Virus record (IMG/VR): IMGVR_UViG_2563366972_000008
Location: 1-39,130 of that record
Direction: 5' to 3' (one strand)
Length of the DNA: 39,130 bases
Origin: a virus
Taxonomy: Duplodnaviria > Heunggongvirae > Uroviricota > Caudoviricetes
Below the pieces are notes generated by a model. It worked only from the letters and a program-made list of their open reading frames with translations, made no database searches and was not told the origin of the DNA. Within the stretch, counting starts at the first letter, position 1. Each line of letters begins with the position of its first letter. A program made the position numbers and the translations under genes. Of the stretch, positions 22,031 to 38,239 are shown in pieces.

Positions 22031-22105
<75 letters not shown>

Positions 22106-22108
22106 ATA

Positions 22109-22184
<76 letters not shown>

Positions 22185-22186
22185 AC

Positions 22187-22263
22187 TGGACCGCCACCGG
22201 GGACTCGAACCTCGCACACTCAACTTAAAGGGTTGACGCTCTTTCCTGATGAGCTAGTGGCGG
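22187..22263 (-). tRNA. tRNA-like gene with noncanonical anticodon loop CCUUUAA (possibly Lys-UUU; C at position 33)
   Basis: Acceptor CCGCCAC/GTGGCGG, T-arm with TTCGAGT loop and encoded CCA; anticodon loop lacks the usual U33 and the T-stem has one mismatch. Confidence 0.55.
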
Positions 22264-22264
22264 T

Positions 22265-22340
22265 TGGTGGCCCTTGCTGGATTTGAACCAGCGACCTGGC
22301 GATTATGAGTCGCTCGCTCTCACCACTGAGCTAAAGGGCC
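22265..22340 (-). tRNA. tRNA with CAU anticodon, ileX/ileZ-like (Ile2 or Met)
   Basis: Acceptor GGCCCTT/AAGGGCC, anticodon loop CUCAUAA, TTCAAAT T-loop, CCA; resembles the Ile2 tRNA carried by lambdoid phages downstream of Q. Confidence 0.8.
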
Positions 22341-25908: not shown

Positions 25909-26193
25909 TTACCTCCAGATGCGTTGCTGGAATGTGCGGGACGGACGCGGTGGGCGTTCGGAATAAGGGAGTCTGACGTAGATTATCCAGTGACGATAAT
26001 CGAGGGTGAGGGCTTTCCTAAACTCATACCCACGTCTGCGGTAGTTCTGAATCAGCCATTCGGCCTGTTCTTCAGTGCAGGGATCGTGCTGATACCAGTC
26101 ATATTTGAATGCGTGAGAACGCCGCCCGTGCCTGCTGGCAAAGACGGCTGAATTATCAGAATTGTTAATTTTTTTGTAATGCACCACTACCAT
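25909..26193 (-). CDS. Hypothetical protein
   Basis: 94-aa ORF upstream of the YdfU-like gene; no recognisable motif. Confidence 0.4.
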   Translation of the reverse strand: MVVVHYKKINNSDNSAVFASRHGRRSHAFKYDWYQHDPCTEEQAEWLIQNYRRRGYEFRKALTLDYRHWIIYVRLPYSERPPRPSRTFQQRIWR

Positions 26194-26253: not shown

Positions 26254-26448
26254 CTAGTCTTTCTTAATGCTGAAGTGACTGACCGAATCCGCATGCGATT
26301 CTTTGGTGATCAGAATAACATCGGGTGGCAATGGCATTACGATAAATTCACCATTCTCAAGAACTATTACTTCATAATTACCAGGTACAGAAAGCGCAGC
26401 AATTAATTCCTTATCGTTCATAACCAAAATCCCGTGAACTTTAAACAC
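26254..26448 (-). CDS. Hypothetical small protein
   Basis: 64-aa ORF with GTG start, SD-like AAGGGGAGG overlapping the start; weak support. Confidence 0.25.
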   Translation of the reverse strand: MFKVHGILVMNDKELIAALSVPGNYEVIVLENGEFIVMPLPPDVILITKESHADSVSHFSIKKD

Positions 26449-26732
26449 CTCCCCTTAAGGGGTCCATCCCTCTTCTCCCTGCGCGCTACTTAAGAGCCTC
26501 GATTCTAGCCGTGAAGACATACCAATCAACAGCAATAAGCCACCTGAATAACAGAATCAGCCAGCCACATCAGTACAACCAGATGCATCATGCTCACTGA
26601 AAATAAACAACAAAAAACCCGCCGAAGCGCTGAGGGGTCCCCATAAATCAGCGCTAAAGCGGGTTAAGTGCGGGTGCATTGAGGATACCTGACAACTTAA
26701 AGAGTGGCGGGAATTGCTCCCCGCCGCAGCTC

Positions 26733-26885
26733 TTAACGTTTTTCAACTTCGTAGGCTAAATACGCTGAAAGCTCTGTGTTTCCCTGCCTGATGTGCAGCT
26801 CGCATAGCGAACCGCGAACCATCCAGACAAATATCAGAATGGTGATGCAAACCACCACCAGACAAAACACATAGCTCCTTCGCAT
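26733..26885 (-). CDS. hok: Hok/Gef-family type I toxin
   Basis: 50-aa ORF (absent from the ORF track) found by hand translation: MRRSYVFCLVVVCITILIFVWMVRGSLCELHIRQGNTELSAYLAYEVEKR; one TM helix plus the conserved LCE motif; AGGGGG RBS. Confidence 0.75.
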   Translation of the reverse strand: MRRSYVFCLVVVCITILIFVWMVRGSLCELHIRQGNTELSAYLAYEVEKR

Positions 26886-26943
26886 TACAGCCCCCTGTTA
26901 GTTGATTTCTTACTGTTAAGAGGCTAATCTTTATGTGTCGCAT
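26743..26943 (-). CDS. mok: mok-like overlapping reading frame
   Basis: 66-aa ORF overlapping hok in another frame and starting about 60 nt upstream, as in hok/mok/sok loci. Confidence 0.45.
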   Translation of the reverse strand: MRHIKISLLTVRNQLTGGCNAKELCVLSGGGLHHHSDICLDGSRFAMRAAHQAGKHRAFSVFSLRS

Positions 26944-27176
26944 ACAGAATGCCTCAGATTAATGTTAAGCGTCTTGCCGGACGCGTAATGTTAACTGGGG
27001 CTTTTCTCTATCTGCCGTTGGTGTTCATGCCCGAGGCAGATAGCCTCAAGCACCCGCAGCAATTCTACTTAACTCTCCTTTTCCCGCAAACCGTTTTTAT
27101 CCCCAGCGGCAAATCGAATACACCACCAGCGCCACCGCCATCGCAATTCCTACCGTTGTGAATGCTTCAGGCCAAG

Positions 27177-27773
27177 TCATCGTAAAATATCCTCCGCGCT
27201 TATCAGTCCGTTCCGCTCCAGATAACTCATCGCCTTATCCGGTAATTTGCAGTCCGGCTTCGCTTTCCTCAATTGGCTAACCAGTTGTTTAATCAGCATT
27301 GTTAATTCCCGTACCTGAACGTCCCCTTTGGTATCCTCATTGGTGAGGATACCATCGTCTTTCCCCTGAAGCATGGCGGCGCAGCAGGCGTTCCATGAAA
27401 TTTCCTGAAGGGAACGACGAATCTGTGTGCTGCATATACTCCTCCCTGACTCCTGGCTGTTAAACCATGTTTCAAATTCCGGCACTACCGTCGCTGGCGG
27501 GGCGGTGTAAAGTGGAACAACTCGCCCTCCCCATTGCTTAACACTACTCTCCGCGAACACTAAATGCTCAGTCCGATAATACCCGGGGGCATCAATATCT
27601 TTTCTTTCGCTATCCCACATGTAAACCACCGGCTCTGCTTCCAGCGATGCCAGTGCGATACGAAACACATTAGTAAGCAGGCTGTTTGAAGATTGGTTAT
27701 CGTGCGCCGGATCGCTCAGGAAACCAGTGATGAATGATTTAATTTCCGCGTTTTCTCTGGTAATAGTGGTCAT
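27177..27773 (-). CDS. Hypothetical protein
   Basis: ORF taken from ATG 27773 (MTTITRENAEIKSF...), coupled to the stop of the upstream small gene. Confidence 0.5.
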   Translation of the reverse strand: MTTITRENAEIKSFITGFLSDPAHDNQSSNSLLTNVFRIALASLEAEPVVYMWDSERKDIDAPGYYRTEHLVFAESSVKQWGGRVVPLYTAPPATVVPEFETWFNSQESGRSICSTQIRRSLQEISWNACCAAMLQGKDDGILTNEDTKGDVQVRELTMLIKQLVSQLRKAKPDCKLPDKAMSYLERNGLISAEDILR

Positions 27774-38149: not shown

Positions 38150-38239
38150 TGGCGGAGAGAGGGGGATTTGAACCCCCGGTGGAGTTGCCCCCACTCCGGT
38201 TTTCGAGACCGGTCCGTTCAGCCGCTCCGGCATCTCTCC
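38150..38239 (-). tRNA. serU: tRNA-Ser (anticodon CGA), serU-like; probable attachment site
   Basis: 90-nt cloverleaf with long variable arm, anticodon loop CUCGAAA, acceptor GGAGAGA/TCTCTCC, encoded CCA. Confidence 0.85.

Follow-up and report, generated by a model that had tools for sequence, protein, structure and literature searches.

The window analysed here, 39,130 nt of a lambdoid E. coli (pro)phage, carries on its minus strand at positions 27089–26612 a complete hok/mok/sok type I toxin–antitoxin locus. The canonical parts are all present: the mok reading frame, the tac/fbi fold-back, the hairpin formed by ucb and the mok Shine-Dalgarno (SD) sequence, the putatively protective 3′ stem-loop, an intrinsic terminator and the Sok gene. 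An earlier reading of this DNA (the sequence-only reading) had proposed a hok/mok-type locus at this place, and profile searches and folding agree with it (Pfam HOK_GEF, E = 9.6e-20; Rfam RF01794, E = 5.4e-20; fold z = −10.2). No second hok copy was found within the window.

On the minus strand, genes for a DnaT-like replication protein (30788–29742) and replication protein P (29953–29288) are followed by those for DUF977, Ead/Ea22-like and DUF4014 proteins and a 228-aa protein of unknown function (27863–27177), then by hok/sok and a 94-aa ORF of unknown function (26193–25909), and finally by DUF968/YdfU, RusA, antiterminator Q (24493–24134) and tRNAs. This gene order places hok/sok in the nin (delayed-early) region, between P and Q and in the same direction as its neighbours, in keeping with the early-region position proposed before.

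The hok toxin gene and the mok frame

The hok gene (26885–26733, minus strand) encodes the 50-aa peptide MRRSYVFCLVVVCITILIFVWMVRGSLCELHIRQGNTELSAYLAYEVEKR, and the Hok/Gef-like ORF previously claimed at these positions is thus real. The peptide scores 70.4 bits against Pfam PF01848 (gathering score 22), covering positions 3–42 of the 42 in the profile. It is 100% identical to the RefSeq protein WP_001585819.1, "Hok/Gef family protein", of E. coli ETEC4085, a strain in which the whole locus is 99.6% identical to the window. An exact-sequence look-up placed the same peptide, under the same name, on 532 public contigs, and its 90% identity cluster extends over four genera (Escherichia, Salmonella, Citrobacter and Enterobacter). 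The label "unannotated" given to the locus earlier would hold for this record only, the identical CDS having a RefSeq annotation.

Among named toxins the closest are the pnd/srnB-type Hok of IncF/IncI plasmids (WP_001331364.1; 61% identity) and chromosomal HokA (49%), and the motif FVWMVRxSLC…QGNT…LAYEV is common to all three; the R1 Hok is 45% identical, and HokW and HokD 35%. The best NCBIfam model is HokA (NF007290, an equivalog), at 70 bits. Because this lies under the curated cut-off of 89, orthology to HokA was rejected. The NCBIfam Hok subfamily model (NF007279) is likewise matched below its cut-off (62.4 bits against 73), and the toxin is a Hok family member of a clade other than the one on which that model was trained. 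In the comparison with HokA–E suggested by the sequence-only reading, similarity to the Hok family is strong, and the toxin is not an orthologue of HokA–E, its scores being below both the HokA and the Hok-subfamily cut-offs. The SD-like sequence AGGGGG, noted before as a ribosome-binding site, lies at 26896–26891 (minus strand), 5 nt ahead of the hok ATG; at the same position the Salmonella and Citrobacter relatives have AGGAGG.

The longer, mok-like ORF that had been noted in another frame is also present. It occupies 26943–26743 (minus strand), comprises 66 codons, overlaps hok out of frame and starts 58 nt upstream of it, an offset common to the window and to the P1-like, Pantoea and IncF pnd-type loci; in the R1-type locus the offset is 57 nt. 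Its own SD, GAGG, is found at 26955–26952 (minus strand), 8 nt upstream of the mok ATG. The mok product matched no family in Pfam or NCBIfam, as expected for a coupling ORF, since it is the translation of mok and not its product that matters (PMC9841398). By analogy, hok translation in the window is probably coupled to that of mok. Between the two start codons lies a dcb-like box, AGCCUC (26925–26920, minus strand), in a stretch, UAGCCUCUUA, that is conserved in seven of eight loci. Once the mRNA is activated, this box could form base pairs with the mok SD. It overlaps the −10 box of the Sok promoter, an overlap of dcb and Sok −10 that has been described for R1 (PMC9841398).

Promoters, Sok and folding of the mRNA

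The hok/mok mRNA promoter (27089–27062, minus strand) consists of a −35 box TTGCGG (27089–27084), a 16-nt spacer and a −10 box TAGAAT (27067–27062), with the +1 at G27055. The −35 box is weak, with three of six consensus matches. In nine hok loci the −10 box (TAGAAT, TACAAT, TAAAAT or TATGAT) stands 6 nt ahead of a conserved 5′ G. The predicted full-length hok/mok mRNA accordingly measures ~444 nt (27055–26612, minus strand), its 5′ end taken from the first position of RF01794 together with tac and its 3′ end from the terminator.

The Rfam search recommended by the sequence-only reading returned family RF01794 ("sok") at 27055–26883, with 93.7 bits (gathering score 59) and an alignment to the whole model, positions 1–157. 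The match is on the minus strand, that is, in hok sense; model positions 1–12 are the tac element GGGUGCUUGAGG and the final three are the hok AUG. Since the match thus spans tac to the hok AUG on the sense strand, the model describes the hok leader holding the Sok target; Sok itself is read from the opposite strand, as the reverse complement of a stretch inside this leader.

A Sok-like RNA had been expected on the plus strand around 26890–26990, and a candidate is found there. The Sok promoter (26902–26930, plus strand) has a −35 box TTGATT (26902–26907), a 17-nt spacer and a −10 box TAATCT (26925–26930), and thus stands at the mok start region, the place at which the sequence-only reading had required an antisense promoter; a terminator hairpin follows. 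The predicted Sok RNA (~26937–27006, plus strand; ~70 nt) corresponds to the sokW misc_RNA of phage 933W. It would begin with a ~10–20-nt single-stranded 5′ tail, the complement of the SD and start codon of mok, followed by a long hairpin and finally a U-run (fold z = −4.97). Its 3′ 53 nt are identical to SokW and its 5′ ~18 nt are different. All seven loci compared have TTG, a 17–18-nt spacer and TAnnnT at this site, between flanks that have diverged.

Both promoters were assigned by this comparative conservation and not by a consensus scan. The scan for promoters and terminators called none of the hok promoter, the Sok promoter and the real terminator; it placed one terminator inside the hok CDS and one promoter downstream of the locus, at 26529–26502. 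It misses the two promoters because the hok −35 and the Sok −10 (TAATCT) each match the consensus at only three of six positions.

Within the leader, tac forms the 5′ end of the mRNA (27055–27044, minus strand) and has three partners: fbi in the minimum free energy (MFE) fold of the full-length RNA, positions 27036–27020 in the nascent RNA, where a metastable hairpin results, and ucb in the isolated leader. The ucb element, an anti-SD box AAGCCCC (27003–26997, minus strand) with GCCCC invariant in eight loci, has two partners, the mok SD when the full-length RNA is folded (MFE) and tac when the 60-nt leader is folded by itself. Three of the four bases of the mok SD are paired with ucb in the full-length fold, and GAGGC is kept across loci at this site.

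Downstream of hok, the region was described earlier as hairpin-rich, with a terminator-like element near 26614–26645. The hairpin-rich character and the terminator are real, and the boundaries need partial correction: the intrinsic terminator (26665–26612, minus strand) is a hairpin at 26665–26616 followed by U6 at 26617–26612, with a local fold of −29.9 kcal/mol. Its loop contains a palindromic insert of ~31 nt relative to the Salmonella and hokD-type loci. Upstream of it lies fbi, the fold-back inhibitory element, CCUCAAUGCACCC (26684–26672, minus strand), whose duplex with tac comprises 12 bp and one bulge, has −21.5 kcal/mol and is part of the MFE fold. Between the hok stop codon and fbi there is a stem-loop, GGCGGGGAGCAAUUCCCGCC (26725–26706, minus strand), which we predict to be the protective 3′ end of the processed, active mRNA; disruption of its homologue in R1 abolishes toxicity (PMC9841398).

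The 444-nt mRNA folds with an MFE of −190.6 kcal/mol compared with −135.5 ± 5.4 kcal/mol for shuffled sequences (z = −10.24), and none of 100 shuffles was as stable. Folding of both ends, a check that had been proposed, recovered the expected pairing: in the full-length MFE the molecule is locked, with tac and fbi closed, the GCCCC of ucb on the mok SD and the hok AUG fully buried (probability unpaired 0.01), the hok SD-like AGGGGG being partly paired. The nascent first 48 nt give the expected metastable tac hairpin, and the isolated 60-nt leader has the tac/ucb stem as its MFE.

Plain MFE folding of 3′-trimmed RNAs from the window did not predict the open conformer. As a control we used the R1-type locus L009, whose Hok is identical to the R1 Hok. 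The full-length MFE of this control also contains tac/fbi, and its trimmed MFE likewise lacks the open form. Because a proven R1-type locus fails in the same way, the trimmed MFE is uninformative for the window, and a constrained-fold energy comparison replaced it: forcing tac/ucb in the trimmed RNA changed the energy by +1.9 kcal/mol in the window and by +3.2 kcal/mol in the R1-type control.

The structure was further assessed on an alignment of eight loci (A1), comprising the window, hokD-type, hokW, an IncY/P1-like plasmid, a Pantoea plasmid, hokA, an IncF pnd-type and the R1-type locus; the hokA tac (GAGA) and the pnd-type Hok (LCGL) were identified by hand. The regulatory helices of the window are paired in 88.4% of cells as against 38–48% when the partners are slid, a measure that favours the tested structure, which was derived from one member of A1, the window itself. 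Pairs changed on both sides number 15, compared with 4–7 in the slid controls, and the covariation score was reached by none of 500 shuffles. Compensatory changes occur in tac/fbi helices 1 and 2 (U·A to C·G in the IncF and R1-type loci, G·C to A·U in hokA), and three pairs are changed on both sides in helix 6, the 3′ stem-loop. Across eight diverged loci, these changes support the predicted mRNA structure.

Relationship to known loci and mosaic structure

A hok/sok locus such as this one is of an already known kind, and nothing about it is new in kind. Annotation of hok/mok/sok in lambdoid phages goes back to 933W (AF125520), and a preprint of 2025–26 lists 44,248 Hok homologues, including those of 3852 prophages and 2501 phages, with hok enriched in prophages and its function there said to remain to be studied (10.1101/2025.08.07.668861). 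Its sole mildly unusual aspect is the mosaic of lineages from which it is assembled and the possible bearing of that mosaic on Sok specificity.

The leader side resembles hokW/mokW/sokW of 933W, which BLAST aligns to window positions 26917–27180 at 91% identity. This locus and the hokD(relF)-type loci of E. coli prophages share with the window a mok ATG at +113, an fbi ~48 nt past the stop codon, identical tac and fbi sequences and carriage by lambdoid phages. In contrast, the HokW toxin has only the 35% identity given above (CDS DNA ~45–47%), mokW and hokW share a frame (offset 57) and mok in the window is out of frame with hok (offset 58), and the Sok 5′ tail and −35 box differ. In addition, hokW lies outside the nin region of 933W and the window locus inside it.

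The toxin side resembles loci of Salmonella enterica, Citrobacter braakii and Enterobacter sp. (chromosomal or prophage), whose toxins are 80–96% identical to that of the window. These loci share with the window the upstream promoter block and, at 92–98% DNA identity, the Sok promoter, mok, hok, the 3′ stem-loop, fbi and the first terminator arm. They differ in having a short, hokA-like leader (80–86% identical to hokA, 64–71% to the window), so that the hok ATG falls at +149 in Salmonella and +154 in Citrobacter compared with +171 in the window, a Sok hairpin 21 nt shorter and a terminator without the ~31-nt insert.

Along the locus the change from one lineage to the other is sharp. From −60 to +104, a segment containing the promoter, tac, the leader hairpin, ucb and the Sok hairpin with its terminator, the window agrees with hokW of 933W at nearly every position. 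Between +125 and about +400 its identity is 96–98% with the Salmonella locus and 92% with the Citrobacter locus, both of the same toxin clade. Neither parent matches the ~20 nt in between (+105 to +124), which span the mok SD as far as codon 4; these nucleotides coincide with the Sok 5′ tail and encode this recognition tail together with its target. The junctions adjoin boxes conserved in both lineages, GAGGC and UAGCCUCUUA, and all pairings survive the mosaic because the two lineages have tac, ucb and fbi in common. The recombinant locus, including its leader, is found in E. coli chromosomes at 98–99% identity, and at most ~39 records are at least 95% identical to it.

A tblastn search of 50,697 deposited phage records did not find this toxin allele, the best match being 48% identical; the usual phage Hok is of the HokW type, and megablast against phages matched the leader only.

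The mosaic could be read as a natural recombinant in which a toxin cassette of the Salmonella/Citrobacter clade was placed behind a hokW-type leader and Sok hairpin. If the Sok tail sets antitoxin specificity, lambdoid phages could shuffle hok modules into new "immunity types", and these would escape the Sok RNAs of co-resident prophages, analogous to immunity-region mosaicism. We regard this reading as doubtful.

Plasmid R1 hok/sok (parB) is the experimental prototype. Its elements follow the same order as in the window (tac, ucb, mok SD, mok, dcb/Sok promoter, hok, stem-loop, fbi), the R1-type locus and the window behave alike in silico as full-length, nascent and trimmed RNAs, and both toxins belong to PF01848. 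The two differ in that the R1 toxin is less than half identical, its DNA beyond short conserved boxes is too diverged for BLAST, it resides on a plasmid and not a phage, and of these two function is proven for R1 only; the predicted mRNA of the window also contrasts with that of R1 in its ~444 nt and its end at a strong terminator past fbi. The pnd-type and HokA loci, closer to the window in their toxins, have leaders only 44–54% identical to it.

Predicted mechanism and alternative explanations

Sequence and computation demonstrate both ORFs, both promoters and the pairing elements, as well as the conservation of these parts from locus to locus. They make it very probable that this lambdoid E. 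coli (pro)phage carries, within its nin region, a type I hok/mok/sok module that is intact, its function being assigned by homology to plasmid R1. This copy of hok/sok is apparently functional.

The mechanism can be predicted by homology to the R1 model (PMC9841398). A weak promoter (−10 TAGAAT) would give rise to a stable mRNA of ~444 nt, which would be neither translated nor bound by Sok because of the tac/fbi lock, the cover of ucb over the mok SD and the buried hok start. Slow exonucleolytic trimming from the 3′ end would then proceed as far as the stem-loop at 26725–26706, taking away both terminator and fbi, upon which tac would switch to ucb and free the mok SD. As long as the element is present, the unstable Sok would pair with the mok start region and RNase III would cleave the duplex. 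Once Sok synthesis stopped, because the element was lost or an infecting phage shut off transcription, mok would be translated and hok with it by coupling, and the 50-aa Hok would depolarise the inner membrane and kill the cell. The likely role is prophage addiction and/or exclusion of the abortive-infection type. A point against this reading is that trimming in the window would have to remove ~90 nt, including the strong terminator hairpin of −29.9 kcal/mol. In R1 the 3′ trimming is shorter, at ~37 nt.

The locus might instead be a decayed relic, like several chromosomal loci of K-12, that is recognisable and unable to express its toxin or kill. Two of its promoter hexamers are weak, its recombinant origin could have mismatched the regulatory parts, and the ~31-nt insert in the terminator loop might hinder 3′ processing. 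Many chromosomal hok loci are, moreover, reportedly inactive (Pedersen and Gerdes 1999). Against decay, both ORFs are open, both SDs are present, and the 12-bp tac/fbi duplex and ucb are kept; the occurrence of the exact peptide on 532 contigs and the cluster across four genera argue for selection; and the mosaic junctions fall in blocks conserved in both parents, with the pairings preserved. Representative chromosomal and prophage Hoks have furthermore been found toxic whatever their location (10.1101/2025.08.07.668861). Decay is on balance distinctly improbable.

We consider it still less probable, and indeed very unlikely, that a working hok/sok supplies Hok mainly to the lytic programme, through pR read-through at induction and a depolarisation that aids holin triggering or host shut-off. 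The locus is co-directional with the delayed-early nin genes between P and Q, and since the consensus scan detected no terminator between the upstream gene and hok, antiterminated pR transcripts would run through it. A simple lytic gene would, however, need none of the dedicated promoter, the tac/fbi lock and the antisense gene that are found here, and homologous modules occur in quite other settings (933W outside nin, IncF and IncY plasmids, chromosomal hokA). The small size of the ORFs, and nothing else, would fit a chance assembly of small ORFs and hairpins in an intergenic region, and the probability of such an origin is vanishingly small given the Pfam and Rfam E-values (9.6e-20 and 5.4e-20), the fold z-score of −10.2 and the 99.6% identical loci annotated in E. 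coli.

As an intact type I module, the locus would give this phage a host-killing addiction or exclusion system that standard ORF size cut-offs have missed, with a bearing on prophage stability and possibly on the exclusion of other phages. The mok ORF and the Sok RNA gene, neither of which RefSeq annotates, are now placed to the base. For cloning, fragments of this region without the Sok promoter may be toxic.

Leader and terminator of the hok mRNA

The Rfam family RF01794, titled "sok antitoxin", matches the window at 26883–27055 on the minus strand, which is the hok-sense strand, and the match covers the entire hok leader from tac, the 5′ translational activator element, to the hok AUG. A hit to this family thus identifies the hok leader; taken as the antisense RNA Sok itself, it would be on the wrong strand and of the wrong extent. 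At the other end of the transcript, the terminator (window 26616–26665, minus strand) carries a palindromic insert of ∼31 nt in its loop, TAGCGCTGATTTATGGGGACCCCTCAGCGCT, whereas in the Salmonella and hokD-type loci the same terminator is a simple CCCGC-TTCG-GCGGG hairpin.

Genes flanking the hok locus

A hydrophobic ORF of 27 aa, MTWPEAFTTVGIAMAVALVVYSICRWG, lies upstream of the hok promoter (window 27097–27180, minus strand) and possibly encodes a small membrane protein. Its counterpart is kept in the Shiga-toxin phage 933W (MTWPEAFANVGTVMAVVLVVYSICRWR), and it carries no annotation in the RefSeq record of ETEC4085, an E. coli genome encoding the identical toxin. The start of this ORF overlaps the stop of the preceding 228-aa ORF (ATGA), and its 3′ end lies a short way upstream of the hok −35 box.

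Directly 3′ of the hok terminator, on the minus strand, are two small ORFs, of 64 aa (window 26254–26448) and 94 aa (window 25909–26193), neither of which has a match in Pfam. ETEC4085, unlike the window, has genes for DUF1367, DUF1364 and DUF1133 downstream of its hok locus, and this difference in neighbours shows that the nin region has a mosaic junction where the hok block sits.

Further along the minus strand, a cluster of four tRNA genes is located downstream of Q (window 22034–22340), a place where tRNAs are often found in lambdoid and Stx phages. A fifth tRNA gene close to the end of the window (38153–38239, minus strand) could be the integration site.

Database records of related loci

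The IncFII plasmid L009 (NZ_CP128973.1, positions 501–659), our positive control for folding, is an example of the inconsistent annotation of hok genes: the RefSeq CDS for its R1-type Hok is truncated, spanning 102 nt (33 codons; 558–659), and the full 52-aa Hok ORF is intact at 501–656.

Among phage-database records, the hok leader and the block upstream of it (window 26951–27200) are matched best by PP818812.1, at 97.2%. This record is named "Actinobacillus phage vB_Apl-pPE4", yet its sequence is E. coli lambdoid-like, so the host may be mislabelled or the record contaminated.
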